Below are positions 4,331 through 42,100 of a stretch of DNA of 64,000 nucleotides, piece by piece (position 1 is the first letter of the stretch; each line of letters opens with the position of its first letter). The stretch comes from a virus, in UHGV virus genome UHGV-1368191; one strand, written 5' to 3'. The position numbers and the translations under genes were made by a program. Below the pieces are notes generated by a model. The model saw nothing but the letters and a program-made list of their open reading frames with translations, was not told the DNA's origin and made no database searches.

Positions 4331-5024
4331 GATTGATTCAGGGAACATAATATTAACACTTAAATTTGGTTTAGTTATGGAATCAAGAACTATTAAAATC
4401 ATCAACAACAGAACACAGAGTCAAACAACTCTCTATACTTCAGCAGCCACTCTGGGAGAATTGAAAAATGAACTGGATAGTCGGGGTATAGACTATGATG
4501 GACTGGATTTCTATTGTGGGGAAATGAGAGCTGAATTGAAGGAGGATTCAGCACCTCTCCCTGAGAAGGTAATGTGGAAAGGAGAAGAGAAGAACTCCCT
4601 GACCTTCTTGCTTACCCCAACAAAGAAAATATCATCAGGTTCTAGGCGGGATATCTATGCCACTATCAAGAAATACAATCTGCAAGAAGTGGTAAAGGCC
4701 AAAACTGGAGCCAATTATACTCAAGTTTCAAATGATACCCTTGAGAAGATAATAAAAGACCATGTAAAAGATTCCTCTAAGGGTAATGAGGACTCCTCTA
4801 AGGGTAATGAAGGTTCCACCACTTGTCACACCAAAACTATAGAGGAGAGAGTCAAGAACCTGGAAGAGGCTTTTCTTAAATTGGTTGTAGCTCTCTATGA
4901 TATGGATTTTCTTGACAGGGATATTTACTGTGAACTGGTTGAATGTATTGAGGACAGTGACCCTGAGGATGACTTCTTAAGTCAGAGTGAGATAGATGAG
5001 ATGTTTGGTAGCTGGGCTAAATAG
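4320..5024 (+). CDS. hypothetical protein with DSSKGNE tandem repeat and acidic C-terminus
   Basis: 234-aa ORF. The real start is possibly the ATG at 4377 (MESRTIKII). Followed by an intrinsic terminator. Confidence 0.3.
   Translation: MRNKIDSGNIILTLKFGLVMESRTIKIINNRTQSQTTLYTSAATLGELKNELDSRGIDYDGLDFYCGEMRAELKEDSAPLPEKVMWKGEEKNSLTFLLTPTKKISSGSRRDIYATIKKYNLQEVVKAKTGANYTQVSNDTLEKIIKDHVKDSSKGNEDSSKGNEGSTTCHTKTIEERVKNLEEAFLKLVVALYDMDFLDRDIYCELVECIEDSDPEDDFLSQSEIDEMFGSWAK
4770..4811 (+). repeat. 2 x 21-nt tandem repeat (DSSKGNE x2) inside CDS
   Basis: gattcctctaagggtaatgag / gactcctctaagggtaatgaa. Confidence 0.5.
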
Positions 5025-5075: not shown

Positions 5076-6380
5076 ATGGATAAGGTAGAATTTGAAAAGA
5101 GTTGTGCTATTCCCTTCTTTAATGAAGTATTAGAGTATCCTAAAAAGATTTATCGGATATTTGAGGACTTCTATGGAGAGGAGAGAGTAGACCTTCAAGG
5201 ATTACCAAGCTATGGGAAAGTAGTTGACTTTCTTGATAATGCCTTTATAGGGATAGATACTCCCTCAAAAAGACAAACACTTATTGATAGAGCCCCAGAA
5301 GAGAATAAGGAAATAGTGAAAACTATAATCCTGGAAGCTATAAAAGAGAGTAGCCACATAGAATTTCGGAATAATCCATTTGCCATAAAGTATATTTTTC
5401 CTTTGGTAAAAGACCGACTTATAGGGGAATTATCAGGGAATTATGAGGTAAATATAATGGTGTGGTTTCCTGATGTAACTGTTACTAATGAGTATAATGA
5501 GTCTATTAATATAAAAGACTTATATGCCAAGGTTCCAATAAACCTCTTTGGGAGAAGTCTTGGAATGATAAAAATGAACAGGAGTACCTATACAGAAAGA
5601 CAACTTAGTAGTGGGTATGTTCATAGTCATGTTCCCAGAATGAATCCTAATACTCGAAGGAATCTGACTTATTTTGAGAGAATTTGCATGGGAACTGGTC
5701 CTATTAGAACCACTATAACTAACCTAGCTACGGAGTATGATGAAAATCTATGGGAACTACTATGCTTAGAGCTTGATAATTTCACTAAAGTAGAATCCAT
5801 ATTAGGAGGTCCCTATGTTAAGTTAGGGGAGATAGGAGTAGGAAGCCAAACGACAATAGAGGGAATGTTTTCCCATAATAAACCTTTTACTGGGGCTACT
5901 TCTTTCAGTGTAAAAGACCTTCATGAATTCATCAAATGGCTTATTTCAAGAAGAGTTTTAAAGTTTTCTCTCACTCCCACTGGAGTGGCACTTGCTCAAA
6001 GTAGATATGATTTAGCTATTAAGATAAGCAATGAATTCCTGAAGTATATCAATATTAAGATCAGTGCTAAAACAGTAGATTATACAATTGACGATTTAGT
6101 GAACTCCCTTGTATTAAGAAAACTCCTCATAAAGGATGGGAAATTCTATGCTGTAATTCCCATTTCTGATGACTATAGCACTTTAGAGGGAACTGACTTG
6201 TTCACCTTTAAGGGTAAGACTATAAAGCTCCACATAACTGAAGATACAGGGAATGGAGAGAATGTGGTTCTTTTACTGGGAGATGCTATTCTTCAAGATA
6301 TATGTAGAATTATTTTGGAAATAATAAATTATCATTATGGAAGGGAAAACAGAGTTGATAAAGGAATCTACTTTATTTGA
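5076..6380 (+). CDS. hypothetical protein, first gene of the coupled cluster with JAB and E1-like genes
   Basis: 434-aa ORF. Its 3' end overlaps the JAB gene by 44 nt. No decisive motif. A weak E2-like HxH...NPN...IC pattern is not convincing. Confidence 0.35.
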   Translation: MDKVEFEKSCAIPFFNEVLEYPKKIYRIFEDFYGEERVDLQGLPSYGKVVDFLDNAFIGIDTPSKRQTLIDRAPEENKEIVKTIILEAIKESSHIEFRNNPFAIKYIFPLVKDRLIGELSGNYEVNIMVWFPDVTVTNEYNESINIKDLYAKVPINLFGRSLGMIKMNRSTYTERQLSSGYVHSHVPRMNPNTRRNLTYFERICMGTGPIRTTITNLATEYDENLWELLCLELDNFTKVESILGGPYVKLGEIGVGSQTTIEGMFSHNKPFTGATSFSVKDLHEFIKWLISRRVLKFSLTPTGVALAQSRYDLAIKISNEFLKYINIKISAKTVDYTIDDLVNSLVLRKLLIKDGKFYAVIPISDDYSTLEGTDLFTFKGKTIKLHITEDTGNGENVVLLLGDAILQDICRIILEIINYHYGRENRVDKGIYFI

Positions 6381-7398
6381 TTTAGTGATTCCAGTGAGTG
6401 TTGAGAGAAAGATTAGGATTTTATGTAAAGAGATTCCTAATCTTGAGTGGTCTGGTATATTGTTTTATACAACTGAAGGGAGTTTTGATGATGGTTCCTT
6501 GAAGATTATATGCAAGGATATCTTACAAATGGATGAGGGAACTGGCACTTATACTGAGTTCCAAACTTCTCCTGATATAGCTACCTATTTGGTAAGTCAT
6601 CCTGAATTGTGTAATATGTATCAAGGATTAATCCATTCACATGCTGGATTCCAGACTTTCTTTAGTGGAACTGACTTAAATACCTTGAAAGTAGAGGGCA
6701 GTGACATGGCTCATTTTGTATCTTTAATAGTCAATAATGAAGGTACTTATACAGCTGCTATAACAAGGAAAATCTTAGTGACTGGCCACATGAAAGAAAC
6801 TATTCCTACATGGAATGGAAAGAAAGACACTAGGGAGTATGAAATCACTAATACGGAAATTCGATATCATTTCCTTAAAGTTACCAAGGAAATGCAAGAA
6901 ACTCCTGATGATGATGAACTTCTTAATAGAATAGAAGAGATCAGGAAAGCCAAGAAAGAGACTTTAGCCAATAGGGTTTTCAATATCCCTGATAATCTTT
7001 ATAAGATACCTGTGCCTGAATCTGTGTCTCCTAGAGTTATTGATAGTAAAATGGATACACTAGTGAATAGTGTATTAAGACAACTTATATCAGGAACTCC
7101 TATAATAAACACCAAGAGGATGGACTTAAAAGCCTGGAGTGAAAACATAGAGAAAATCTATAGTAGGAGATTCAAGGACATACAGAGTTTCTCTAATTGG
7201 GCAGATTCCTATATTGATTTCCTTTTTAACTCCTACCAGTGTAGTGACTATGGATATAGTGATAATGAGGACTTTCACTTTCACTCTGACTTAGCAGAGG
7301 AACTTATTGATTCATTAGACCACTTAGGGAATAATGATTATTTTGATGCTTTTATTGAAATATTGAGTACTTATATTATAGATTATGGACATAACTGA
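6337..7398 (+). CDS. JAB/MPN (JAMM) metalloprotease domain protein
   Basis: IHSHAGFQTFFSGTD fits the JAMM core HxHx7Sx2D exactly, with Glu residues upstream. Ends with a 200-aa C-terminal extension of unknown function. Confidence 0.5.
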   Translation: MEGKTELIKESTLFDLVIPVSVERKIRILCKEIPNLEWSGILFYTTEGSFDDGSLKIICKDILQMDEGTGTYTEFQTSPDIATYLVSHPELCNMYQGLIHSHAGFQTFFSGTDLNTLKVEGSDMAHFVSLIVNNEGTYTAAITRKILVTGHMKETIPTWNGKKDTREYEITNTEIRYHFLKVTKEMQETPDDDELLNRIEEIRKAKKETLANRVFNIPDNLYKIPVPESVSPRVIDSKMDTLVNSVLRQLISGTPIINTKRMDLKAWSENIEKIYSRRFKDIQSFSNWADSYIDFLFNSYQCSDYGYSDNEDFHFHSDLAEELIDSLDHLGNNDYFDAFIEILSTYIIDYGHN

Positions 7399-8410
7399 AT
7401 TAGAGGAATTGATAGACAGTGATATTACAGCTGAGAGTAATGAAGAACCTACGGGGATTTATGCTCCTATTCCTTACCCTAGTACTACTCAGAGTGATCT
7501 TTTAGTATCACAATTGTCTCAAGGATATCTTAAAATACACTCTATAGAACCATATGAGAGAGACTATAAGGTTATAGTCACTGATGACACAGGTAATTTC
7601 ACTGCATATATAGTAGCTTATTCCTTGCTCTTAAGGATAAAAGAAGCAACAGAGCAATATGCTGCCAGTCAAGGAGCTGGTGTAAGTCCTAATTCCGCTT
7701 CCCTTGAATTTGATGAAACTACAAGCAGGTTCAATGGAGCTATTTGGTATGATAAAATCACTAACCAGCACATAATCCTTGCTGGATTAGGAGGAATAGG
7801 CAGTTGGACAGCATTATTGCTAGGAAGAATGAAACCAGCTCTTCTTGCATTGTATGATCCTGATGTAGTTGAAAGGTCTAATATGTCAGGACAACTATAT
7901 GGAGTATCTGAAATAGGATATAGTAAAGCAGCCTCTATAAGAAAGATTGTTAACTGGCTATCTGACTACTTTCCTTCAGCTCTGGATATGAGATATACAG
8001 GAACTTCACCAGCAAGAGATGTAATGATTTGTGGATTTGACAATATGGAGTCTAGACAACTATTCTATAAAAAATGGAAAGCTCATGTAAGTGGCTCAGA
8101 AGACAAGAAAAAATGTCTTTTTATAGATGGGAGATTAGCCGCTGAAAGTCTACAAGTATTCGCTATTACAGGTGATGACACCAGATCCATGAAACTTTAT
8201 GAAGAGAAATGGTTGTTTGATGATTCTGAAGCTGAAGCTACTGTTTGTTCTTATAAACAGACCTCCTTCATGGCTAATATGATAGCTTCCATTATAACAA
8301 ATATTTTCGTAAACTTTGTGGCTAATCAGTGTGATCCACCTTTCCCTAGGGAGGTTCCCTTCTTTACTGAATATGATGCTGCTACTATGTTCTTAAAGAT
8401 TGAATCATGA
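7385..8410 (+). CDS. E1-like ThiF/MoeB-family adenylyltransferase
   Basis: Rossmann GxGxxG ILAGLGGIGSW followed by LYDPDVVERSNMSGQ (cf. E1/MoeB LVDFDVVELSNLQRQ). Preceded by an N-terminal extension of about 120 aa. Confidence 0.6.
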   Translation: MDITELEELIDSDITAESNEEPTGIYAPIPYPSTTQSDLLVSQLSQGYLKIHSIEPYERDYKVIVTDDTGNFTAYIVAYSLLLRIKEATEQYAASQGAGVSPNSASLEFDETTSRFNGAIWYDKITNQHIILAGLGGIGSWTALLLGRMKPALLALYDPDVVERSNMSGQLYGVSEIGYSKAASIRKIVNWLSDYFPSALDMRYTGTSPARDVMICGFDNMESRQLFYKKWKAHVSGSEDKKKCLFIDGRLAAESLQVFAITGDDTRSMKLYEEKWLFDDSEAEATVCSYKQTSFMANMIASIITNIFVNFVANQCDPPFPREVPFFTEYDAATMFLKIES

Positions 8411-9204
8411 GTGTTAGTAATCAATTTAAAGATACCCTCAAATCTATGTTTCGTACTCAATGGGTTAAAGATGAGATGTATATTAACCCTGGAAACCTCA
8501 TTAGTGGACTTAGTTATGGGGATGTATGGCAGTCTTTTATCAGTGTGGATTGCAGGGACTTTAGTAGTTTAAGAATACCTCTGTTTCTAGGTGGGTTCCG
8601 CAAACTTAACTCTGTTATAACCACTAATCTTAGATCAGACACATGGGATATGAAGTATTTGATGGTACCCCTGAATCTAGGCAAATATCGTGTTAATACC
8701 CTTAAGAATTTTAAGTCATCTCTTCGGGCTATAAAGGAGATGAATGAGGCTGAACCCAATTTTGGAAATCCTCTATGCCAAGTTAAAATAAATGATACCA
8801 TTTACTATGGAGGTAGGGGAGCTTACTTTGATTCTAAAGGAAATCCCCTACTTATGATAATACTAGAGTGTGGCATGCAAGAGGGATATCATGTTATAGA
8901 CAGCAATTATAAGTTACAGATTAAAAATTGTTTTGTGTATATACACCCTAGAGTCTATACATCAAAAGGAGTGCTGGAGAAGTACATAGTATCAAAGATA
9001 CTACCTTATGTAATTACCAATACTTTCTGTATAGGGACTTATAACTCATTCATGTCATCTTCCCATGACTTGTACTCCCCAGTAGTTATAATAACTGACT
9101 TTGACTATATGTTCCACAAGCCTATTATAAATGAGAGTACCTCTAATGAGGAACTCAATGACTTGTTAATAGCTAATGTAGACAGTGTTGATAGATTCAC
9201 ATGA
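8407..9204 (+). CDS. hypothetical protein, translationally coupled to the E1-like gene and to UDG
   Basis: 265-aa ORF with ATGA overlaps at both ends. Confidence 0.35.
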   Translation: MSVSNQFKDTLKSMFRTQWVKDEMYINPGNLISGLSYGDVWQSFISVDCRDFSSLRIPLFLGGFRKLNSVITTNLRSDTWDMKYLMVPLNLGKYRVNTLKNFKSSLRAIKEMNEAEPNFGNPLCQVKINDTIYYGGRGAYFDSKGNPLLMIILECGMQEGYHVIDSNYKLQIKNCFVYIHPRVYTSKGVLEKYIVSKILPYVITNTFCIGTYNSFMSSSHDLYSPVVIITDFDYMFHKPIINESTSNEELNDLLIANVDSVDRFT

Positions 9205-9914
9205 CACTAAAGGAGTACTTTGGAGATTGGTTGAAGGTATTTGACTATAAAGAATTCAATAGCATACTTGCACAACTTAACACATTATACAGAACAAGAT
9301 TAATATGCCCTAAGAAAGAAAATGTCTTTAGGGCATTTAATCTTTGTCCTTATAATAGTTGTAGGTGTATCTTTATTGGATATGACCCTTACAATGATAT
9401 TTATGAAGGAGAACCTAGAGCCACTGGTATTTTGTTTGGAAATAATAAAAATATCAGTGAAGACAAGTATTCTCCTTCATTAAAAATTGTTAAGAATGCC
9501 AGTATAGATTTGTGTATTCCACATAATTATATTACCTTTGACCCCACATTGGAGAGCTGGGCTAAGCAAGGAATCTTGATGATAAACTCAGCTCTTACTG
9601 TTGAAGCATGGAAGCCAGGTTCACATCTAATGCTTTGGAGGAAATTTATTTCCACTATGCTTAGTAATATCTCACAAATAGAAACTGGAATGGTGTATGT
9701 GTTATTTGGTTCTGAAGCTAAGACTTTTAAGCCTTATATAGGAAAGAATAACACTATACTTGAAGAGAACCACCCAGCTTACTACGCTAGGATGCATAAA
9801 GAAATGCCTCCAGGGCTATTCAGAGAGATTAACACTATTTTAAAACGTATATATAATTATCAAATCAAATGGTTTAATTATGAAAACAATGAAGAGGAAT
9901 TACATTACTATTAA
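9201..9914 (+). CDS. ung: uracil-DNA glycosylase, family-1-like (GYDPY variant of GQDPYH)
   Basis: The protein can be aligned by eye to E. coli Ung: NVFRAFNL...IFIGYDPYN (cf. DVFNAFRF...VVILGQDPYH), PTLESWAKQGILMINSALTV (cf. [20 protein letters not shown]), GMVYVLFGSEAK (cf. GVVFLLWGSHAQ) and NHPAYYA (cf. PHPSPLSA, catalytic His). Confidence 0.7.
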   Translation: MTLKEYFGDWLKVFDYKEFNSILAQLNTLYRTRLICPKKENVFRAFNLCPYNSCRCIFIGYDPYNDIYEGEPRATGILFGNNKNISEDKYSPSLKIVKNASIDLCIPHNYITFDPTLESWAKQGILMINSALTVEAWKPGSHLMLWRKFISTMLSNISQIETGMVYVLFGSEAKTFKPYIGKNNTILEENHPAYYARMHKEMPPGLFREINTILKRIYNYQIKWFNYENNEEELHYY

Positions 9915-10347
9915 TTGTCATTCAATGGATGGAGTTTCAACTGAAGAGGCTGAAAAGTTCTTAGTGGAACTGTTTAAGAAAATGGGAATACTCGGAGAAG
10001 AGGAAGATGAAGAAGAAAGGGAAGCTGATAAAGTCATAGATCACTTAGCACACAGGTTGGAAATAGATGATCCAAGTGCTTTAGAGGATCTATTGAGTTG
10101 GATAGATAATGTTTCTGAGCTTTCTACTTTCCTTATTCTGGCTAAGGAATATGCCCTAATGCATAACTCTGGTACTCCTAAGGCTGATGAGTATTATACT
10201 TTCAACATCCTTAATGGATGTATAATAAGGATTAAGGATGTGAAAGAGTCAGTTCTTAAGCAGATTCCCTACTTCAAAACTGTAGAAGAGGCTAAGAAGT
10301 GTAAAGAGGTATTATATCCTTGGTGGGAGAGTGTATATGGAGAATAG
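9880..10347 (+). CDS. acidic hypothetical protein
   Basis: 155-aa ORF containing a GEEEDEEERE stretch. Confidence 0.3.
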   Translation: MKTMKRNYITINCHSMDGVSTEEAEKFLVELFKKMGILGEEEDEEEREADKVIDHLAHRLEIDDPSALEDLLSWIDNVSELSTFLILAKEYALMHNSGTPKADEYYTFNILNGCIIRIKDVKESVLKQIPYFKTVEEAKKCKEVLYPWWESVYGE

Positions 10348-11485
10348 AAAGATTAGGGGGGCTACTAAAGTCGAGGTTGGTGAAACTGTCTTCAAGAGTA
10401 AATTAGAAGCTAGAATAGCCGAGGCCTTTCAAGAACTAGGAATAGAGTATGAGTATGAGAAATACAAGATTACTTTATTACCTAGTTTTGACTATGACAA
10501 GGAGCACTTTAGATCTATGATTTACACTCCAGACTTCAAGGTAGGAAATGCTATTATAGAAGCTAAAGGATTTCCCTCTGACGCTTGGAAAATACGAAAG
10601 AAAATAATCATGTGGACCTTGAAGAACATTCCAGAATTGGAATATTTCGAGGTTCACTCTATTCAAGAACTTCTTGACATGGTAGAACAAGATGATAGAT
10701 TCCTAACCTATAATATACAGGTGTTTACATTGGATAATACTTTTGTTGGTGAGTACAATTCAGTTACTGATGCTGTAAATGAACTAAACATAAAGTCAAA
10801 TAAGTCTAATATATTTTCTTGTATAATAGGAAAAAGGAATAAAGCTGGGGGTTATATATGGAAAAGAGTCTCCAGGGTATTTATTCCAGATGAGAATGAA
10901 GAATGGAAGGATGTCATTGGATTTGAAGGTCTCTACTATGTCTCTAACCTAGGAAGAGTAGCTTCAGCCCAATTCCATGGAATACGTAATTTCAGGTTAA
11001 TGAGTCAGTTTTCTGATTCTTTGGGATATCACTTCGTGAAATTGAGGAATTGGAAGAAGGGTATAGTTATGAGTGCTCCTGTTCATAGATTGGTAGCTGA
11101 GGCTTTCCTCCCTAATCCTGAGAACAAACCTCAAGTAGATCATATTGACACTGATCCCTCTAATAATAATGTTGAGAACCTTAGATGGGCCACCAGCCTG
11201 GAAAACCAAAGGAATCCACTGACTTTAGAGAGATTACGTAGTTCCATAATCTCTATGAATAAACAGGGAATAGGACCAAAAGCAAGTGCTAAAAAGAAAA
11301 GAAAGAGAGTCGTATTCACTGATGGAACTTCTGTCACTAGATATGAATCAATTAGTCAAGCTTCCAAGGCTACTGGGCTTTCTACTTGCTCTATACAGAG
11401 ATGGTGTAACAGGCAGATAAAAGGATGGAGTTATGAACAATCAGAACATACAGAAACTGATCAAGGAAGCGGAGGTAATACCTAA
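10331..11485 (+). CDS. composite endonuclease: T7 endonuclease I-like PD-(D/E)xK domain + HTH + NUMOD4 + HNH (homing-endonuclease-like)
   Basis: N-terminal MIYTPDFKVGNAIIEAKGFPSDAWKIRKK...PELEYFEV matches T7 gp3 YTPDFLLPNGIFVETKGLWESDDRKKHLLIREQHPELDIRIVF. NUMOD4: WKDVIGFEGLYYVSNLGRV. HNH: HRLVAEAFLPNPENKPQVDHIDTDPSNNNVENLRWAT. Two IENR/NUMOD1-like HTH segments: NSVTDAVNELNI...AGGYIWKRV and YESISQASKATGLS. Confidence 0.6.
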   Translation: MYMENRKIRGATKVEVGETVFKSKLEARIAEAFQELGIEYEYEKYKITLLPSFDYDKEHFRSMIYTPDFKVGNAIIEAKGFPSDAWKIRKKIIMWTLKNIPELEYFEVHSIQELLDMVEQDDRFLTYNIQVFTLDNTFVGEYNSVTDAVNELNIKSNKSNIFSCIIGKRNKAGGYIWKRVSRVFIPDENEEWKDVIGFEGLYYVSNLGRVASAQFHGIRNFRLMSQFSDSLGYHFVKLRNWKKGIVMSAPVHRLVAEAFLPNPENKPQVDHIDTDPSNNNVENLRWATSLENQRNPLTLERLRSSIISMNKQGIGPKASAKKKRKRVVFTDGTSVTRYESISQASKATGLSTCSIQRWCNRQIKGWSYEQSEHTETDQGSGGNT

Positions 11486-12664: not shown

Positions 12665-15556
12665 ATGACAGAGCAAGAATGGCTAAATGATAATCAGCTC
12701 TCATTGGATATATGGCATAAAAAGTACCAAGTTGACAATGAGAGCTTTGAGCACTGGCTTGATAGAGTAAGTGGAGGAAACCAAGATATAAGACAACTTA
12801 TTCTTGAAAAGAAATTCCTGTTTGGGGGTAGGATACTAGCAAGTAGAGGAGTGACTGACAGAAGGGTTACTTATAGTAACTGTTATGTAATTGCACCCCC
12901 AAGGGATAATATTGAATCTATCTTTGAAACTGCAAGTAAGTTAGCAAGAACTTATAGTTATGGAGGAGGCTGTGGTGTGGATATTAGCAACCTTAGACCT
13001 AAAGGTACTATAGTCCATAATGCAGCTAAAAGTACATCAGGTGCTATAAGTTTCATGGACTTCTATAGCTATGTTACTGGTCTTATAGGTCAGTCAGGCA
13101 GACGTGGGGCATTAATGATTAGTATTAGCTGTAAGCATCCTGACATTGAGGAGTTTATTAATCTTAAAACTAAAGCTGGAGTATGTGAAAAAGCTAACAT
13201 AAGTATCAGAGTATCTGATGAATTTATGGAAGCTGCTATACAGGATAGGGATTGGATAACTGAATTTACAAGTCCTGAGACTGGTACTATAACCAAGACT
13301 TTCAAGGCAAAAGATTTGTTAAAACTCCTAGCTAAAAGAAATTGGGAGTGGGCAGAACCTGGATTATTATATTGGGATAGAATTGCTCATTATAATATGC
13401 TTGATAATGATGATGCTTTTGCTTATGCAGGGGTCAACCCATGTCTTACAGGAGATAGCTTGATTCAAACAGTGGAAGGGGAAATTCCTATAAAGGAGTT
13501 AGTAGGAAGTACTCCATTTGTATATTGTATGGATTCTGATGGTAATCTTGCTATAAGAAAAGCTGTTAAGGTTTGGAAAACAAGAAAGAATGCTCAACTT
13601 GTTGAGGTTATAGCAGGTAAGGGAAGACTAATTTGTACTCCAGACCATAGAATATTTACTACTAATAGAGGTTGGGTTGAGGCTGCTAATCTTCAAAAAG
13701 GAGATAAAATAAAGGGTCTTAATAGACAAACTACAGGGCATAAATATTGTTCTGTAAGCCTTAGTGGCACTAAGTATGAGAAGGAACATAGATTTATTGC
13801 AAGACACTTCTATGATATAGAAGATATGGATGTTCATCATATTAATGATAATGGGTTTGACAATAGATTATCAAATCTTGAAGTTATCACTCATGAGGAA
13901 CATTCAAAACTTTCTAATACTGGAAGGGTTATTGAAGTTAATAGAGATGAAACTACTGGAAGGTATCTTCCTAAAGAAGAGCATACAGGTAGAACCTGTA
14001 GAAACTTAGGAAAGGAAGTAGGTATTAATTGGTATATTCAAGAAGTAAGAACTCTTGATTATACTGAGGATGTCTATGACATGACTATAGAGGACACTCA
14101 TAACTTCATTGCTAATGGGTTTGTAGTTCATAATTGTGCTGAAGAGCCATTACCAGCAGGAGGCTCATGCTTATTGGGTAGTATTAACCTTAGTGAATTT
14201 GTAACTAATCCATTTACTGATAAGGCTAAGATGAACTGGATTAGTCTTGTAGAAGCTGTAGAGATAGCTATCTCAGGTCTTAACGAAGTACTTGATGAAG
14301 GTATGATGTTACATCCTCTTCAAGAGCAAAGAGACTCTGTAAATAAGTGGAGACAAGTTGGCTTAGGTACAATGGGATTAGCTGATATGCTAATTAAATT
14401 AGGTATTGCTTACGGTTCTAATAAAGCTCTTGAGATAACTGAAAGAGTATATAAGCTTATAGCAGCAACAGCTGTGCAAGCATCTATCAAATTAGCTACT
14501 TTTTCAGGATGCTATCCTATGTGTGATAAGGAGAAGTTAGCTAATTCCTCGTTCATTAAATCATTAAATCTTCCAGATGAAATGATTAGTGATATAAGGA
14601 CTTATGGATTAAGAAATAGTCAACTTCTTACTTGTGCTCCTACAGGTAGTATTGCTACCATGTTGCAAGTATCTACTGGAGTAGAACCTAACTTTGCATT
14701 AAAGTACACAAGAAAGACTCAATCATTGAATGGTAAAGATACTTATTATGAAGTATTTGCTAAAATAGTAGATGACTATATTGGTGATAGATATGGTGAA
14801 GATATAAAACTTCCTGATTACTTTGTAGAGTCTAAGGATATAGCTTCTATTGATAGAATCAAAATGCAGGCAGTACTACAGAAGTACACTGATGCAAGTA
14901 TTAGTTCTACAATAAATCTTCCTAAAGAAGCTACAGTGGAAGATGTGTATAACATCTATGTAGAAGCATGGAAGCATGGACTTAAGGGATGTACAGTCTA
15001 CAGGAGTGGATGCTTTAGGGAAGGTATTCTTACTACTAAAAAGCCTATCAATATGCAAGCTGTAGGTGCTCCTAAGAGACCTAAAGAGCTTCCCTGTGAT
15101 ATTCATAAGGTAAAGGTGAAAGGAGAGAACTTCATAGTATGTGTGGGTCTTTATGAGGAGAAACCATATGAGGTATTTGTCTTTAGGCTCAAGAATAACA
15201 TAGAGCTTACTGACACAAGGGGAACCATAACCAAGCTCAAGAAGGGTGTATATAGCCTTGAGTCAAAGGATTTGATAATAAATAACCTCCTTAATACTGA
15301 TATTACTGTTGAGGAGAAGGCTGCCACTCTGTATAGTTCTATGCTTCTTAGGCATGGAATCTCTCTTAAGTATATTATTAAGACAGCAAGGAAAGTCAAT
15401 GATAATATAATCTCTTTCAGTAGTGCCATGTGTAGGGTACTATCTAAGTATTTACCTAAGGATACTGGGGAATCCTGTCCTGAATGTGGTGAGAAATTAA
15501 TAAGAACTGGAGGATGTGTCTCATGTCCTTCCTGTGGTTATAGTAGATGTGAGTAA
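12665..15556 (+). CDS. ribonucleotide reductase large subunit (class II NrdJ-like likely) interrupted by an intein; C-terminal Zn ribbon
   Basis: GGGCGVDISNLRPKG. The active-site motif GVNP-C/AEEPL...SCLLGSINLSEF (cf. NPCGE..L...CNLGSINL) is split by a Hint domain. C-terminal CPECG...CVSCPSCG. Confidence 0.75.
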   Translation: MTEQEWLNDNQLSLDIWHKKYQVDNESFEHWLDRVSGGNQDIRQLILEKKFLFGGRILASRGVTDRRVTYSNCYVIAPPRDNIESIFETASKLARTYSYGGGCGVDISNLRPKGTIVHNAAKSTSGAISFMDFYSYVTGLIGQSGRRGALMISISCKHPDIEEFINLKTKAGVCEKANISIRVSDEFMEAAIQDRDWITEFTSPETGTITKTFKAKDLLKLLAKRNWEWAEPGLLYWDRIAHYNMLDNDDAFAYAGVNPCLTGDSLIQTVEGEIPIKELVGSTPFVYCMDSDGNLAIRKAVKVWKTRKNAQLVEVIAGKGRLICTPDHRIFTTNRGWVEAANLQKGDKIKGLNRQTTGHKYCSVSLSGTKYEKEHRFIARHFYDIEDMDVHHINDNGFDNRLSNLEVITHEEHSKLSNTGRVIEVNRDETTGRYLPKEEHTGRTCRNLGKEVGINWYIQEVRTLDYTEDVYDMTIEDTHNFIANGFVVHNCAEEPLPAGGSCLLGSINLSEFVTNPFTDKAKMNWISLVEAVEIAISGLNEVLDEGMMLHPLQEQRDSVNKWRQVGLGTMGLADMLIKLGIAYGSNKALEITERVYKLIAATAVQASIKLATFSGCYPMCDKEKLANSSFIKSLNLPDEMISDIRTYGLRNSQLLTCAPTGSIATMLQVSTGVEPNFALKYTRKTQSLNGKDTYYEVFAKIVDDYIGDRYGEDIKLPDYFVESKDIASIDRIKMQAVLQKYTDASISSTINLPKEATVEDVYNIYVEAWKHGLKGCTVYRSGCFREGILTTKKPINMQAVGAPKRPKELPCDIHKVKVKGENFIVCVGLYEEKPYEVFVFRLKNNIELTDTRGTITKLKKGVYSLESKDLIINNLLNTDITVEEKAATLYSSMLLRHGISLKYIIKTARKVNDNIISFSSAMCRVLSKYLPKDTGESCPECGEKLIRTGGCVSCPSCGYSRCE
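13442..14134 (+). mobile_element. intein (231 aa) with embedded HNH endonuclease in RNR
   Basis: Starts CLTGDSLIQTV right after GVNP and ends VVHN before the +1 Cys (CAEEP). Internal DVHHINDNGFDNRLSNLEVITHEEH HNH motif. Confidence 0.7.
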
Positions 15557-35113: not shown

Positions 35114-38100
35114 ATGGCAAATGCATGTGTATTTACCCCTAAAAAGGGGATTAAGACTTTCCAAAAATTAAAAAATGAATTTGGGTATGATGAAGCTTGG
35201 AAGATTTATGGCATAGCCATGAATCCCAAGTTCCAGAATGATTATAAGGACTCTCTCAGCTTTGATGCTGAGGGAGTTCCTTTCTTTGATTCTCTTATCC
35301 AGAATAACTATATAATGAAGGTAGCTGGAAGTAATATAAGAAAGTACCTAGGAAAAAATTTACCTAAAAGGGATGATTCAATAGAGAATTTTAACTTAAC
35401 TCTAGAGGATGCTAAAACTTTCAATGACAGGAGTCCCTATAATAAAAATTTTGTGGCTGTAGTAGGATATGATGATGAAGGAAGAATAGCTATACAGTTA
35501 CTTGGCAGAACTGAAGAGAATGAGAAAAAATTTGCTAATCAGTATGCCACTTATAAACTTAATATGAGGCTTGCTGAAATATTGAAGTCTCTGGGGGTGA
35601 GTGTAGGATTACTTCAAGAAATAGAGCAGTCTTCAGGAAGAGTTGGAGTTACTGATTTCTCTGTAGCTAAGTTATTGGCAACTGATTCAATCTCCATGAT
35701 TAGAGTGGCTAATAACATGGAAGGAGCTAAAGCATTAAGTGAGGAGTTTGCCCACTTGATTATAGGAGCTATGAGGGGAAATCCATTAATACAAAGAAAT
35801 ATAAATACCCTAGCCAATGAGGATTCCTTAAGAGAAATATTAGGAGATGATTACCAAGATGTCTACGATTTCTATGAGGGTGATATGGAATTAATGGCTG
35901 AAGAGGCTTTAGGACATATTTTGCAGGAAAAACTTCTTGAGAGTGTAACCTCTAATGATATTCAAGGAAGGTTGATAAATCAAGTACAGAGGAAGTTTAA
36001 GAGAATAAAAGAATCTGAAATAGTGGATGCTATCCATGAAGCTGAATCTAGTATGAGTACAATTGCCAAGGGTATTCTAGGAGGTAATTTAACTCTTTCA
36101 AAAAAAGATATTATCAATTCCCAAAGAGATGTTCAGTTTAATGCCCTAAGTGAACAAGTAGAAAGAAATATAAAAATCCTGAAGGATGCTATTGCAGTAG
36201 AATCTAAAAGGTATAAGATTATTAGGGGTAATGAGGACTCAAAGAAGTATGCTGAAAGTATAGTAAATGCCTTAGAGCGTAATATGAACACAGATACAGC
36301 TTTAGGAGTTCTTACTTATGCAAGGGAAGCATTATCCTCCTTAAAAGTGGCAAGTAATACATTAAGCACTCTCAATACTATGTCACCTGAGGATAAGTTT
36401 AAACTTCTTATAGGCATAAAGAGCACTATTCAGTCCTATAGTCAATTCATAGATAATCTTAATGATTTAGCTCTTGATGACAAGAATGACGCTGATTACA
36501 CAAAAGACTTTGTGGTTACTGATCATAAGGGAGACAAGGAAGTAGTTAACATGAAGTCCACACTTACTGAGCTTAATTCATTATATAAGTTAATTGGGAG
36601 AGACTGGCTAAGAATAGCCCTGCCTTCATTTGCTGAATACTTGAAACCTGTATTGGGTGAGAAAATAACTATAGAAATGGGTTCCAGGAAAGGAGTTTCC
36701 ATAACTATAGAAGAGCTTCTTAAATCCTCTGAAAGTGATATTTCATACTTAGATAGATGGCTTGATAGTATGGGTAACTCCTCTGATATCTTATTAAGGG
36801 CATTTGATAAAATATATAAGAATGCCATGGATAAAGCCAGGCTCCAGAGTATAAAGGATTTTAGGAGAATACAGGCTCTTAGAATGGAAGCTGAATCCTA
36901 TGGGATTACTACCTTTGATTGGATGTTTGAAAGAGATAGAGAAGGTAATTTTACAGGTAATTATGTGAGTGAGGTAAACTCATACCAATACTATCAAGAT
37001 AGAGATAGATTTGAGGAAGAACTTAGTGAAAAATATGGTAAGAACCCAAAAGGTGATAACTTAAAAGCTAAGTTAGCTGAGAGGGAAAGATGGCATGAAG
37101 AGCATAGTGATTTAACTATTCTGGGCACTAGAATCCCCAAGGAATCAGTATATAGAAATGAGGACTTTTATAAGTTATCTGATAAGCAACAACTCATTAG
37201 GAAAAAATTTCTTGAGATAAAAACCCAAATGGATAAACAATATCCTTCTACTAGAGTATCAGAGCTTAAAGCTATTCAACTAAGAAAGGATGGAGTACAA
37301 AGGTTTATTGATTCAGGAAAAGACCCTTCTACTATATTCTCTAATATAAAGGAACATTTAGCTGATGAATTCTTGGAAAGAACTGATGATGATACAATAT
37401 TTGGAGGAAGAACTGGCCTTACTGATTTTGCGGGAAAGGAATTTATGACCTTACCTGTATTATATACCAATAGATTAGAGAATCCCAATGAATTGAGCAC
37501 TGATATATTTGGGTCATTGATGGCTTATACAGCTGCTTCAAATAACTACAGGGAAATGGATAGAATCATTGACCCCCTAGAGACTGGAAGAACCCTGATT
37601 AAGGAAAACAGAAAGGTTAAAACAACTAGAGGAGGGATGAACCTAGTGGAGAAGTTTAAGGCATTAGGAAAAAATTTTCAGAATGAGGCTATTGAGAGTG
37701 GAGGCTCTTATATAGAAGATAGACTTGATGACTTCTTTGCCTCCCAAATATATCATAAGTACTTGGAAGATTCAGGAATCTGGGAAGTATTTGGTAAAAA
37801 AATAAATAAAAATAAGGTTGTTTCAGCTTTAATGAAAGGGTCATCAATGGCTCAATTAGGGTTCAACTATTTAACTAATCTAGCCAATGTGACTACAGGT
37901 GTAGCTATGCAGAATATAGAAGCCGCTGCTGGAGAGTTCTTTAATGCTAAAGAGCTTGCTAAGGCTGACTCTATATATGTTAAACTGATTCCTGGTAATA
38001 TAGCAGAGTTCAATAGTAGAACAAAAACCAATAGACTTTCACTGTTTAATGAGCTGTTTAATATAAGACAAGACTTTGATGATGTCTCACACCATGTGAT

Positions 38101-39073
38101 GAGAAAGAGTGCATTGGCTAGGATATTTTCATCTGAAATAGCATATATTGGACAGGGAGCTGGAGACCATTGGCTATACATGAGAACAGCTATAGCTATG
38201 GCTTTAAGAGAGAGAGTGAATGTTCCTGGGAAGGGAGAAATGTCATTATGGGAAGCTCTCCAGATAGAAGATACATTTGATGGCAATGATAAGATAAAAG
38301 AAATGAAACTCCCTGAGGGAACTACTGGAGCTGATGGTAAACCATTTGATATTGGTAAATTTGGAAGAAAAATAGCTCATGTTAACCAGTCATTATTTGG
38401 TATTTATAATACTGAGGATAGAAATGCTGCACAGAGAGTTATTATGGGTAGGCTATTACTGCAATATAGGAATTGGATGAAACCCCAATTCAATAGAAGA
38501 TTTCAAAGAGGTCAATTTAACCTTGATACACAGAGCTGGGAAGAAGGTTATTATAGAACCTCTTATAGAATCCTAAGGGGGTTAATAAGGGGACAATATC
38601 AGCTAGGAGCTGTGTGGCAAGAACTTAAACCTGAAGAAAGGGCTAATGTTAAAAGAGCTATAACTGAAATGCTTCAATTATGTATAGTAGTACTCTTGGC
38701 TGAATTTATTAAGTGGCCTGATGATAAGGATAGACCTTGGGCAATTAAATTAGCTGAATATACATCTAGGAGACTTGAACATGAATTGGGAACTCTAGCA
38801 CCTTCCCCAATGATGCTTCAAGAGATGCTTAAGACTGTTAAATCCCCAGCTGCTGTTATAACACAAGTGCAAAACCTTATCAATTTATTCTCAAGTCTTA
38901 CTGACCCAAGAGATTGGAATGATGAAATAGAATCAGGTAAATATAAAGGAATGAGTACTTTAGAGAAGAATCTACTTAAATCTGGGCTACCAGGCTTTGC
39001 GCAGTTTAGGCAACTAGATAGATTGATATATGACATGGATAACTCCATTAATTATTATGCTAGACCATATTAA
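35114..39073 (+). CDS. giant virion protein (1319 aa), probably co-ejected partner of the virion RNAP
   Basis: Immediately follows the RNAP gene (the stop at 35110-35112 is separated from the ATG at 35114 by a single nucleotide). No catalytic motif recognised. Confidence 0.35.
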   Translation: MANACVFTPKKGIKTFQKLKNEFGYDEAWKIYGIAMNPKFQNDYKDSLSFDAEGVPFFDSLIQNNYIMKVAGSNIRKYLGKNLPKRDDSIENFNLTLEDAKTFNDRSPYNKNFVAVVGYDDEGRIAIQLLGRTEENEKKFANQYATYKLNMRLAEILKSLGVSVGLLQEIEQSSGRVGVTDFSVAKLLATDSISMIRVANNMEGAKALSEEFAHLIIGAMRGNPLIQRNINTLANEDSLREILGDDYQDVYDFYEGDMELMAEEALGHILQEKLLESVTSNDIQGRLINQVQRKFKRIKESEIVDAIHEAESSMSTIAKGILGGNLTLSKKDIINSQRDVQFNALSEQVERNIKILKDAIAVESKRYKIIRGNEDSKKYAESIVNALERNMNTDTALGVLTYAREALSSLKVASNTLSTLNTMSPEDKFKLLIGIKSTIQSYSQFIDNLNDLALDDKNDADYTKDFVVTDHKGDKEVVNMKSTLTELNSLYKLIGRDWLRIALPSFAEYLKPVLGEKITIEMGSRKGVSITIEELLKSSESDISYLDRWLDSMGNSSDILLRAFDKIYKNAMDKARLQSIKDFRRIQALRMEAESYGITTFDWMFERDREGNFTGNYVSEVNSYQYYQDRDRFEEELSEKYGKNPKGDNLKAKLAERERWHEEHSDLTILGTRIPKESVYRNEDFYKLSDKQQLIRKKFLEIKTQMDKQYPSTRVSELKAIQLRKDGVQRFIDSGKDPSTIFSNIKEHLADEFLERTDDDTIFGGRTGLTDFAGKEFMTLPVLYTNRLENPNELSTDIFGSLMAYTAASNNYREMDRIIDPLETGRTLIKENRKVKTTRGGMNLVEKFKALGKNFQNEAIESGGSYIEDRLDDFFASQIYHKYLEDSGIWEVFGKKINKNKVVSALMKGSSMAQLGFNYLTNLANVTTGVAMQNIEAAAGEFFNAKELAKADSIYVKLIPGNIAEFNSRTKTNRLSLFNELFNIRQDFDDVSHHVMRKSALARIFSSEIAYIGQGAGDHWLYMRTAIAMALRERVNVPGKGEMSLWEALQIEDTFDGNDKIKEMKLPEGTTGADGKPFDIGKFGRKIAHVNQSLFGIYNTEDRNAAQRVIMGRLLLQYRNWMKPQFNRRFQRGQFNLDTQSWEEGYYRTSYRILRGLIRGQYQLGAVWQELKPEERANVKRAITEMLQLCIVVLLAEFIKWPDDKDRPWAIKLAEYTSRRLEHELGTLAPSPMMLQEMLKTVKSPAAVITQVQNLINLFSSLTDPRDWNDEIESGKYKGMSTLEKNLLKSGLPGFAQFRQLDRLIYDMDNSINYYARPY

Positions 39074-39080
39074 AACAAAA

Positions 39081-39110
39081 TAGGGAACCTAAATGGTTCC
39101 CTATTTTTTT
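39081..39110. terminator. bidirectional intrinsic terminator at the convergence point of the two arms
   Basis: Hairpin tagggaacc-taaa-tggttcccta flanked by aaaacaaaa upstream and ttttttt downstream. It lies between the stop at 39073 (+) and the stop at 39127 (-). Confidence 0.65.
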
Positions 39111-39126
39111 ACTATTTATCAGTTCT

Positions 39127-42100
39127 CTAGTACATACAATGGAATAAGATTTCTTTTTCAAGAATAGTCATATTACTGTATTCTTTTGGAGATATCTTTC
39201 TTTCAGATAAATAATCTTTCTGTTCTTTAGATAGTTTATTATAAGAAAGTTTAATCTCATGATATTGTTTTATCTCTATGGTGTCTATAGCTTCTGTGTT
39301 AACATCTCTGTCAATATATTTCCCTTTTAATATATCAGTATAAACTCTGTCAAGATAGAACCAATTACTATTAAAATGATTTAATAGTGCTTTTAATCTA
39401 GACCATAGATTCTTCAGTCTGCCTACAAAAGTCTCTTCATTCTGCATATATCTTCTAAAGTCTTCAGCCATTCTTTCTTCTAGCTCTATAGGACTCAAAT
39501 TACCCCATTGCCTTTTAGCTGATTTAAAGGCATTCTCAAGCTCTTGGTCAGTCATTAGAGTATTGAATACAAAATGGAAGGCCTCATGATAAGCAGTTCC
39601 TCTAGCCGCGTTTTTATAGAGTGTTATAGCTCCATCTTTAAATTGTCCCCAAGCTTTTCCTCCAGGAATTTTTATTAGAGTACCTACTATTCTGATTCTA
39701 TCTTCTTCACTTAATTGAGGAAGTAACTCCCCTATCACCTCTAATTCCCTACCTATTAGAGATTCACTCTCTCCAATGTACTTTCTATATCTAATATCAT
39801 TATCAGTTCTAGAGAATGTTCCAATATTATCTGTAGCTGATTTAATTTGGTTAGGATTAAATACTACTAATTCTACACCATTCTTACCTCTTATATCATT
39901 CATGTTAAAAGCACTTCTAAAAACATTCATATTAGAAAATCCTATAGCACCATCATTGTTAGAAGTACTATGTTTATCTATGCCCTTTCTTGTGTAAATA
40001 TCTCCAGATTTATATCCAGAAGGTTTATCAACAATAACAGGATTTTTAATATTAAGATATACAGGTATATCGTGAGATTGTGAAAGTTTTTCTACAATTT
40101 TTCCTACTATAGTAGAATTATCTCTCCAAGGTTTAAACCACAATCCTTCTCCTCTTTTAGATTTATTTAAATCAAAAGTACTAAAATCAGCTCTTGTACT
40201 ATGATAAACAACTAAAGGTTCACCATTTTCATCTACTACTTTTGATACATTTCTATCTCCACTGTTTATATCGTCTGCTTGTGGTAATTTATCGTTAAGT
40301 ATTCTATAAGTAGTGTGATTCCAATGTCCTACTTTAGGTTTTTCAGATACCACCTCAGCAATTCCATCTTTAACTAAAGATTTCCATAAAGCATCTTCGG
40401 CATCAGAATTAGATCTATCAGAATATAAAATTTTACCTTCTGATTTGGCAATATTAGCAAGAGCTAAATGAGCTTTTTTTCCATATCCTTTTCCTCTATA
40501 TTCTTCTTCTATTTCTGTGGCAGCTCCTATAGATCCTCCCATTCTAATTTTATCTTTAGTTTCAATAACAGGAATTTCTCCTATATATTTATCACCTAAA
40601 AATATAACTCTTTTACCTCCATCAGGAGCCATATCAGCATCAAATAATGCTTCACTTACAGTAACTCCTTGGTATGTAGCAGATGTAATACTATTAGGAA
40701 TATCTTGACTTTCTCTAAATCTAGAAGAACGGGCAACTCTCTCCCAATTACCAAACCATTTCTTAAATGCTTTAGTTCTCACTTGAGCATATTGTTTAGG
40801 TGTAAGGTTTGATGGTCTACTATTAGGAGCTAGGAGTCTACCTTGAAAATCTCTAGGGGCTTTATCTAGAATAGATTGTTCTTCCTTAGTTAGATTAGAA
40901 GTGCTAACTTCTCTATTCTTAGGTCTAAGTTGTTCAGCAACAAGGTTATTCAGTTCCTCATCAGACATATTAGGGATAATCTTAGCATCTAAGTACTGAG
41001 CAAGGGTTTTCAGTATAGGAGTTTTTAGTTTACTGAGACCTTGTATATTATCATCATTTAGTCTGTCTATTCTTGCTTGCCATTTTTTAGGCTTGAAAAC
41101 AGCTTTCTTTTTTAAGGTTTCCCTAATAGAAGCTACATCTTGCCTAGGCTCTGAAGTATCAGGTTTATTTTCCTCAGCTTGAGTACTTTGTTCAGAAGGT
41201 TGAGGAGTCGCTTTCTTAAAGTAGTTATCTACATCTATAATAGGTAATGCTATATTAGGTACTTTATTTACTCCTATAACAGTATCATCATTTCCATAAA
41301 CAATGGTAAAGGGAACTATAGCTACACCTTCAGTCTTTTTACCAAACCTATCATATAGTAGCTTAGCATAGGAAGATACTTGATAGGTATGGTACTCTTT
41401 AGTGGACATTGTTTGCCCCCAAGCAGAATTCACTCCTTCATAGCGAAATCCAGCAAAAGGACCCACAGAAGTCTTTACATCATAAATATAGTAGTTGCCC
41501 TTATTATCTATGAACAGTAAATCAACTTCTCCCGCTATTCTTCTCCCATCCAGATATTTTTGATAGAGAACTATATTATTGGCAAATACTGACCACTTAT
41601 GATCATTTAACCACTTATCTAAGGACTTAAGATACTCTATGATACTATTATAGGCCTTATCTGACATAAAATCAGGCTTAGTGGTCTTTCCTGTATTAAA
41701 GAAGTCTCTTACTATAGTATCAACAGCACTCCCAGTTCTTAGTGCTCTTTGGCTGTTAGCAGTACCAGTATTATTTGAATTAGAAGGAAGTACATTATGC
41801 ACCCTTTGGTACTTATGATACTTGCCATCACTCTCTTTTATATAGTAATAGTTACTATCAGTTCTATTCCTATCTATATTTGATTGATCTGGTATTATAG
41901 TACTTCTTACAAAGTTTCTCTCCCTACTGGCTTTTACCTCATCTTCAGCTTCCTTTGGAGCATCTTGGATAGATTTAGCTCCTTCCTTTTTCCCTTTTAT
42001 TATGGGGTCTATGGTATAGAAATCATTAACTGTATGCAGGGTCCACTTTTCAAGATTGGTTGTAGCTAATTCACCTATAAGACTATTATAATCTTGCCCA

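Follow-up and report, generated by a model that had tools for sequence, protein, structure and literature searches.

The 64,000-nucleotide (nt) stretch of virus genome UHGV-1368191 analysed here (hereafter the window) carries a compact cassette that, judged by sequence, consists of four core genes, encoding in order a ubiquitin-like protein (Ubl) precursor, an E2-like protein, a JAB/JAMM metallopeptidase and an E1-like adenylyltransferase, together with one fast-evolving accessory gene. All are on the + strand and have homologues in Bacteroides phage crAss001 (Crassvirales, Steigviridae): the Ubl-fusion precursor pre (4377..5024 from its ATG start; 215 amino acids (aa); gp79), the E2-like protein A (5076..6380; 434 aa; gp78), the JAB/JAMM peptidase B (6337..7398; 353 aa; gp77), the E1-like protein C (7385..8410; 341 aa; gp76) and the fast-evolving protein D (8407..9204; 265 aa; gp75), with A to D taken from the list of open reading frames (ORFs) and B and C also assigned by profiles. 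The uracil-DNA glycosylase (UDG) gene that follows (9201..9914, + strand; PF03167, 5e-8) is a neighbour outside the system. A preliminary description of this DNA had reported four overlapping ORFs at 5076-9204 and the coupling of the last one to the UDG gene, and both are present as described: successive overlaps (A/B, B/C, C/D and D/UDG) measure 44, 14, 4 and 4 nt, the last two being ATGA, with the UDG start overlapping the stop of D. At the protein level the region is syntenic with crAss001 gp80 to gp74, which are annotated as primase (gp80), hypothetical (gp79, gp78 and gp75), 'metalloprotease domain' (gp77), 'thiamine biosynthesis ThiF' (gp76) and UDG (gp74). The same layout is also found in cr106_1 and bajarodcaudo virus, and the synteny with crAss001 gp79-gp74 bears out the crAss-like phage origin guessed in the preliminary description.

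Protein C matches the Pfam ThiF family (PF00899) over residues 122-335 (E-value 4.8e-15, 55.8 bits against a 28.1-bit cut-off), and a profile built from 19 diverse homologues placed UBA5 first among solved structures (1.8e-13), followed by MccB, UBA6, Uba1, PaaA, ThiF, UBA7, Cap2, TcdA and NAE. The motifs on which the E1/ThiF assignment had originally been based are where they were said to be, with GLGGIGS at nt 7784-7804 and DPDVVERSNMSGQ likewise confirmed in C by translation. Residues G134, G136, S140, D158, D160, N166, Q170, K181, D219, R224 and C288 (nt 8246-8248) are invariant in the E1 alignment, and R115, in the helix just upstream, is near-invariant. Of the residues expected in the ATP site, the Gly loop, DxD, Lys, Asp and R224 are invariant, whereas the Arg of NLxRQ is replaced by Gly169 in nearly all family members and is retained in none. 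Architecturally, a non-conserved N-terminal region of ~110 aa precedes a single adenylation domain (residues ~113-341). Across homologues this N-terminal region ranges from 0 to 200 aa and is unalignable, and it is absent from both the 228-aa E1 of phage FpV4 and a Xanthomonas jumbo-phage homologue. Because it is neither conserved nor always present, we rejected it as the site of a hidden Ubl or E2 domain.

Comparison with characterised E1 families placed C in none of them. Every NCBIfam equivalog model compared (ThiF, MoeB, MoeZ, TcdA, PRTRC_ThiF and SAMP E1) scored far below its cut-off; the best matches, to ThiF and MoeB models, covered the nucleotide-binding part only (50 bits against a cut-off of 159, 45 against 152 and 32 against 275), as did the PADLOC Cap2 models (<=28 bits). 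The Cap2 and BilD models of PADLOC were likewise well short of their cut-offs. The C-terminal half of the E1 gave no sequence-level link to the Protein Data Bank (PDB). By these profile comparisons, the clade forms an orphan group of minimal single-domain E1s. The phage E1 is probably homodimeric.

The exact JAMM motif reported in 6337..7398 was confirmed by translation as HSHAGFQTFFSGTD (HSHx7SGTD; nt 6634-6675). The catalytic residues, including the active-site His and Asp, are invariant in 18 diverse homologues, FpV4 among them (E37 at nt 6445-6447, H100, S101, H102, S110, G111, T112 and D113). Prok-JAB (PF14464) matches B just below its 25-bit cut-off (21.1 bits, E-value 2.9e-4), and the family profile matches CSN5 (1.7e-3) and the archaeal SAMP-deconjugase JAMM1. 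With this profile and conservation evidence, the E1 and JAB motifs in C and B are not chance matches. In the peptidase, the JAB domain (residues ~19-190) is followed by a low-complexity linker, which is variable, and by a C-terminal helical domain, which is conserved; the C-terminal extension, once listed as a possible Ubl, consists of this linker and helical domain and was rejected as such.

Protein A was matched by none of the profile libraries scanned, including Pfam, NCBIfam and PADLOC. Its AlphaFold2 model, built from 61 homologues (predicted local distance difference test (pLDDT) 87.6, predicted template modelling score (pTM) 0.69), shows an N-terminal helical region, a UBC-like core and a C-terminal alpha/beta domain. 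The core, delimited by the secondary structure of the model (residues ~98-245; 5367..5810, + strand), is predicted to contain a helix (101-120), strands (125-137, 143-155 and 166-173) and two helices (209-217 and 223-236) in UBC order, and the hallmarks of the UBC fold (N-terminal helix, beta-meander, active-site loop and helices) are all present in the predicted model. The matches listed for it include the UEV domains of BRE (6.4) and Tsg101 (5.8), Citrobacter BubB (5.7) and many E2s and RWD domains. At the level of predicted fold, this bears out the suggestion that the 434-aa ORF might encode an E2.

Residue conservation in A is concentrated in the same core. Twelve residues are invariant across 91 sequences that include FpV4 and divergent phages from metagenome-assembled genomes (MAGs): R169, Y181, H183, S184, H185, C204, G206, L217, E240, S241, G244 and P246. 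In a tblastn comparison of the window with FpV4, residues 123-255 were the sole part of A to align. The loop H183-S184-H185 corresponds to nt 5622-5630, and Cys204, within C-x-G-x-G-P-I, to nt 5685-5687. Since Cys204 and the His residues are invariant, A is a candidate for catalysis, with Cys204, downstream of the HSH loop, as the candidate Ubl-accepting Cys. The family is a large one: among 1.84 billion representatives, a count at 50% identity gave 3033 clusters with E<=1e-3. We also considered the C-terminal tail of A, with its conserved NY.YG, as an activated terminus and set it aside: its extreme end is a conserved aromatic-x-Ile/Leu that overlaps the JAB start codon region. At window 6337-6380, the last 14 codons of A overlap the first JAB codons in another frame, and the aromatic-x-Ile/Leu terminus could be a consequence of this double coding and have no separate function.

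None of the places initially proposed for a Ubl (the flanking proteins, the E1 N-terminus and the JAB extension) fits; the best candidate instead lies upstream, at 4377-4640, within pre. The true start of this gene is ATG 4377 and not TTG 4320 of the mechanical ORF list, because all homologues begin ME(A/T)RK there and an independent gene call on an identical public contig also gives 215 aa. Of the first 85 loci fetched, 82 have this gene immediately before the E2-like gene, as do six further MAG loci. Its first 88 codons (4377..4640, + strand) encode a putative ubiquitin-like (beta-grasp) domain ending KKISSG, for which a crude propensity profile gives beta-beta-alpha-beta-beta-beta. Among homologues, the conserved N-terminal domain spans the first 76-95 residues. 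The Ser-Gly that closes it (nt 4635-4640) is invariant in 83 of 83 precursor homologues, with Ala as the next residue in 75, and its equivalents read KKIKSG in crAss001, K-S-G-G in FpV4 and V-D-S-G in a soil Puia-MAG phage. Matches of the Ubl profile to the beta-grasp DIX domain were weak (E-value 0.03; Pfam DIX 4.4e-4 for one member) and were lost with a broader alignment; as the link faded once more distant members were added, we did not rely on it.

The remainder of the precursor, here termed cargo (4641..5024, + strand, delimited by alignment), has no Pfam match. It contains a conserved ~40-aa motif (R.E.Y..IK..GLQ...GKNFTQC.T.DL), after which come an Ala/Pro/Lys/Glu-rich linker that is variable and, at the C-terminus, a helical segment with the end S.SEID.MF. 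In some lineages, a Ribosomal_L12 C-terminal domain (PF00542) is inserted in the linker, scoring above cut-off in two IMG/VR homologues (2.9e-14 at L016:2022-2987 and 1.1e-8 at L018:2558-3496). In cr106_1 (L002 2989-4192), an HNH homing-endonuclease gene splits the precursor gene two codons past the invariant Gly. Both halves are intact ORFs, the upstream one ending KKIKSGKF* and the downstream cargo part forming an ORF of its own (L002 3800-4192). Because the gene is split right after Ser-Gly, the small domain works when detached, and the break, as read from the two ORFs, falls where the processing site would be.

Protein D always sits between E1 and UDG in Steigviridae, and is the fastest-evolving member of the cassette (17-25% identity, or 17-35% when taken with the non-catalytic cassette parts). 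It is replaced by unrelated proteins in FpV4 and the Puia phage. As a Ubl it was rejected, since a conserved C-terminal Gly is absent. D may be a specificity or target factor or may be unrelated to the system, and its membership is uncertain. A wider exchange is seen in cr116_1 (Pamirivirus, Steigviridae; NC_055882.1 20299-24763, corresponding to L101 300-4764), from which A, B, C and D are all absent: its primase-UDG slot holds an 82-aa relic of the precursor cargo, an rIIA gene into which an endonuclease gene has inserted, splitting it, and rIIB, and its UDG start overlaps the rIIB stop as the UDG start in the window overlaps the D stop. Because the UDG of cr116_1 is likewise coupled to rIIB, the coupling is a property of the slot and not a functional link; and because this slot can hold rIIA/rIIB instead, the cassette is an accessory, swappable module, dispensable for replication as such. 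The rII genes are the classic exclusion-evasion genes, known from T4 and Rex. Since the cassette shares its slot with them, which is an association only, the most economical guess by analogy is a role in host interaction or counter-defence.

Across 50,697 phage records, the E2-like gene and the JAB gene each occur in 74 and have the same counts per organism. The E1 occurs in 80; the additional records, with an E1 alone, come from jumbo phages of Xanthomonas and Erwinia, plus one fragment. The precursor was detected by tblastn in 49 of these records, and its profile additionally finds the FpV4 copy. All crAss records whose taxonomy was read (crAss001, cr106_1, cr128_1, cr85_1 and DAC15) belong to Steigviridae/Asinivirinae; to judge by their names, DAC17, 24 PhiCrAssBcn isolates, isolates of Kehishuvirus and Kolpuevirus, and cr111_1, cr112_1 and cr126_1, which are uncultured, are carriers too. 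A second group of carriers consists of Flavobacterium psychrophilum Fipvunavirus phages (FpV4-like). IMG/VR contains at least 272 related loci, and in the 80 that were fetched the genes run primase - pre - A - B - C - D - UDG as far as each contig permits. When a single genome for each prokaryotic species was scanned with the E1 alignment, only 11 loci were returned, all on MAG contigs, which retain the same cassette order where flanking DNA sufficed and which gave no indication that this clade also has a version in bacterial defence islands. On the Puia contig, the cassette is surrounded by phage replication genes (DnaB, RecT-like, primase, GIY-YIG, PD-(D/E)XK and PolA).

Two outlying loci are worth recording beside this distribution. 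A divergent but whole cassette with UDG occurs on a 640-kb Bacilli MAG contig (JBMNLZ010000002.1; L093 3567-9030), where it adjoins large Big_2/amidase proteins on the other strand and where the Ubl-fusion ORF has an odd Cys-rich N-terminus; possible explanations for this copy are a prophage, an integrated remnant and faulty assembly. In the Xanthomonas jumbo phage PhiXhv-16 (L004 3241-6615), an E1 homologue (5932-6615) follows an 892-aa ORF whose N- and C-termini are both rich in Cys and which contains the sequence IHPHM-x10-SLCLGS; by eye, this sequence recalls the HPN...Cys active site of E2s; no JAB was detected at that locus.

The genes near the cassette in the window include primase, a resolvase-HNH fusion, a PD-(D/E)XK nuclease, an intein-containing ribonucleotide reductase (RNR) and dUTPase. 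The neighbourhood is a replication and nucleotide-metabolism module, as the preliminary description had placed it. The RNR large subunit (12665-15556, + strand) is interrupted by an intein (Intein_splicing, 4.4e-20) with an HNH_3 endonuclease domain. In the 384-aa ORF at 10331-11485 (+ strand), a resolvase-like segment (Phage_endo_I) at the N-terminus is fused to homing-endonuclease modules (NUMOD1/NUMOD4/HNH_3), whereas crAss001 encodes its 134-aa resolvase (gp72) separately. GC skew and AT skew flip sign at ~39-40 kb (window 38000-40000), at the border of two oppositely transcribed gene blocks, and no tRNA genes were found across the whole window. No near-identical DNA was present among the deposited phage records; the closest IMG/VR genome shares 85% identity in the E1 protein, and an identical protein D is encoded on ~96 kb contigs from public gut metagenomes.

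Taken together, the E1, JAB, E2-fold and Ser-Gly domain evidence favours the second of two options raised in the preliminary description, a phage-owned Ubl conjugation system, and we consider it somewhat probable that the cassette is a functional cascade for Ubl activation, conjugation and deconjugation. In such a cascade, the JAB peptidase would cut the 215-aa precursor just past Ser-Gly, yielding a ~88-aa Ubl with a C-terminal Gly and a cargo fragment. The E1, in which the adenylation domain and ATP-site residues are seen directly, would then use ATP to adenylate this Gly, possibly followed by a thioester on the invariant Cys288, and the Ubl would be handed on to Cys204, which is invariant in the E2-like protein. 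The choice of lysines to be modified, in the host or in the phage proteome, might lie with the extra N- and C-terminal domains of the E2-like protein, with D, or with both, and the JAB may also undo conjugation, by analogy with BilC and Cap3. The most probable role of the system would be host takeover or counter-defence during early to middle infection, although within this reading we find counter-defence or takeover and regulation of the phage's own proteins about equally plausible. More tentatively, and with rather less than even confidence, we propose that it is the first complete virus-owned E1-E2-deubiquitinase-Ubl cascade in a bacteriophage, conserved in a family of crAss-like phages that are abundant in the human gut and in phages of a fish-pathogenic Flavobacterium; it would tag proteins of the host (or of the phage) so as to switch off defence or to reprogramme the cell.

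Several searches gave no link to known E2 or Ubl families. A Foldseek search of the A model against the PDB found nothing, and E2-like profiles run against the PDB and against BilB did not reach E2 families; the E2 assignment, which rests on the predicted model, is for these reasons made at fold level. The Ubl profile was likewise negative in hhalign comparisons with BilA, UFM1 and ubiquitin.

Among other explanations, we regard as unlikely that the cassette provides counter-defence by deconjugation or decoy only, with the JAB stripping host Ubl conjugates (Bil Ubl from phage tail fibres or Cap2-conjugated cGAS), the E1 acting as a competitor and no conjugation by the phage itself. Such a role would suit the anti-phage function of all characterised bacterial E1/E2/JAB systems, the slot shared with rIIA/rIIB in cr116_1, and the fast divergence of D and the non-catalytic parts, as an arms race predicts. 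A decoy, however, needs neither invariant ATP-site residues nor an invariant Cys, and the E1 decoy envisaged in the preliminary description is improbable because the nucleotide-binding loop, Asp, Lys and a Cys are all invariant. Nor does a decoy need an E2-like partner with an invariant Cys/His set or a co-inherited domain ending in invariant Ser-Gly, and the PADLOC Cap3, BilC and Cap2 models match weakly or not at all, giving no sign of host-enzyme mimicry.

The absence of a rhodanese, cysteine desulfurase, ThiG/ThiH, MoaE or any further enzyme that uses sulfur among the scanned neighbours (window, crAss001, FpV4 and L094) speaks against a sulfur-carrier pathway, in which a ThiS/MoaD/CysO-like domain would be released by the JAB and thiocarboxylated by the E1 for thio-modified nucleotides, tRNA or DNA. 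Such pathways have no role for a protein of E2 fold that carries an invariant Cys, UBA5, UBA6 and Uba1 rank ahead of ThiF and MoeB in the profile search, and the ThiF/MoeB equivalogs fall far short of their cut-offs in the nucleotide-binding part that they match. With no equivalog threshold reached and no sulfurtransferase or biosynthetic neighbours, the sulfur-carrier operon that had been raised as an alternative becomes very unlikely, even though ThiF and MoeB are the best NCBIfam matches of the E1, GenBank labels it 'thiamine biosynthesis protein', UDG, RNR and dUTPase lie nearby, and sets of JAB, E1 and carrier occur in sulfur assimilation (PMC1779556). We hold it to be similarly improbable that the module does not conjugate at all, the small domain being a docking or solubility part, the E2-like protein an inert UEV/RWD adaptor, and the E1 and JAB acting elsewhere, for example in C-terminal peptide adenylation as in MccB or PaaA. 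That Cys204 and HSH do not vary among 91 sequences speaks for catalysis, and the cr106_1 gene split shows a small domain that works detached; MccA-like peptide, export and immunity genes are not present and the MccB N-terminal 'peptide clamp' has no counterpart in the non-conserved E1 N-terminus, which FpV4 lacks.

In GenBank and PHROGs, the cassette genes are labelled only 'ThiF/thiamine biosynthesis', 'metalloprotease domain' or 'hypothetical'. In the literature searched, we found nothing on this cassette in crAss-like phages, except that a virome preprint of 2026 mentions in passing a family of gut-phage proteins with a resemblance to UBA5 and a possible relation to ubiquitination-like systems of bacteria. 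The component domains are of known kinds; what appears to be new is the complete, minimal phage-owned Ubl assembly, the E2-like family and the Ubl-cargo precursor. The characterised bacterial Ubl systems (Cap2/Cap3 of type II CBASS, the anti-phage signalling system based on cyclic oligonucleotides, and Bil) serve anti-phage defence, and Bub is inferred to do so. If our proposal is correct, phages also use protein tagging, as many eukaryotic viruses do, and turn against bacteria the sort of machinery that bacteria aim at phages. It would also give a function to five 'hypothetical' or mis-annotated genes in cultured crassviruses (crAss001, DAC15/17, PhiCrAssBcn, Kehishuvirus and Kolpuevirus), and the carriers include phages of the fish pathogen Flavobacterium psychrophilum that are considered for aquaculture therapy. 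The large unannotated E2-like family could become a named family. The Ubl-cargo precursor and its bL12-domain variant bear on the origin of ubiquitin fusion precursors, and the bL12-carrying cargo would echo eukaryotic ubiquitin-ribosomal protein fusions. The system is small and lends itself to direct tests: its E1 is minimal (~230 aa), its proteins are separate and there are phage-host pairs that can be cultivated.

Among known systems, the bacterial ISG15-like BilABCD (types I and II) shares with the phage cassette the same four functions, as assigned to the phage proteins, in the same order (Ubl - E2 - JAB - E1), a conserved Gly of the Ubl (putative in the phage) followed by extra residues, and the lack of an E3. 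In Bil, BilC pre-processes the Ubl after the conserved Gly, removing those residues, and the E2 is thought to pick targets without an E3 (10.1101/2023.09.26.559546; 10.1101/2024.11.21.623953). The differences are nonetheless substantial. BilD contains tandem adenylation domains, one of them inactive, and a mobile Cys domain, whereas the phage E1 is one ~230-aa domain; an hhalign comparison of the two covers only 60 columns of the nucleotide-binding stretch, the PADLOC BilD model scores 18 bits (E-value 2e-4) on C, and the E2-like protein, JAB, Ubl-fusion and D match no Bil model. Moreover, the putative phage Ubl is followed by a 127-aa cargo in place of the <=9 residues in Bil, the E2-like protein is 434 aa long with extra domains, and the cassette is carried by a virulent phage rather than by a bacterial defence island. 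In Bub operons, too, the Ubl is made as a fusion that the JAB cuts after a conserved Gly. Unlike the Bub (6E/DUF6527) systems, however, the phage genes are separate, with no Ubl-E2, JAB-E1 or E2-E1 fusion, and the BubE/DUF6527 serine protease is absent, there being no DUF6527 or other Pfam match on the flanking proteins; Bub acts through Ser oxyesters, whereas the phage E1 and E2-like protein keep an invariant Cys. Type II CBASS differs in its Cap2 fusion, where the phage has separate E1 and E2 genes, and in conjugating the C-terminus of the cyclase, where the phage has a dedicated putative small modifier; no CD-NTase or effector gene was seen among the phage neighbours.

The resemblance to UBA5-UFM1 rests on UBA5 being the best solved-structure match of the phage E1. 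UBA5 is a short homodimeric E1 with its catalytic Cys in the adenylation domain, and UFM1 matures by the loss of two residues, which leaves a single Gly exposed; the SG|KF end in cr106_1 would call for the same. The small phage domain, however, has no detectable similarity to UFM1, and homologues of UFC1 and UFL1 are absent; the likeness is one of architecture and no evidence of descent. With ThiF/MoeB-ThiS/MoaD and the CysO/Mec+ pathway the cassette shares an E1-like adenylation domain and the public annotation 'thiamine biosynthesis protein ThiF', but it has an E2-fold partner and neither a free carrier ending in Gly-Gly nor sulfur-transfer or cofactor genes. The PRTRC system is set apart by a PRTRC_ThiF score of 30.7 bits on the E1 against a 144.75-bit cut-off, and the other cassette proteins match no PRTRC model. 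A phage-encoded Ubl domain with a C-terminal fusion next to a JAB peptidase also occurs in Lambda and T1, where TAPI is a Ubl fused to a C-terminal domain and the adjacent TAPK (JAB+NlpC) is predicted to release it (PMC1779556); that pair lies in a tail module without E1 or E2, whereas the present cassette lies in a replication module with both. By the family tests run, the phage cassette is a member of none of these systems, yet from its inferred components it would work like Bil or Bub.

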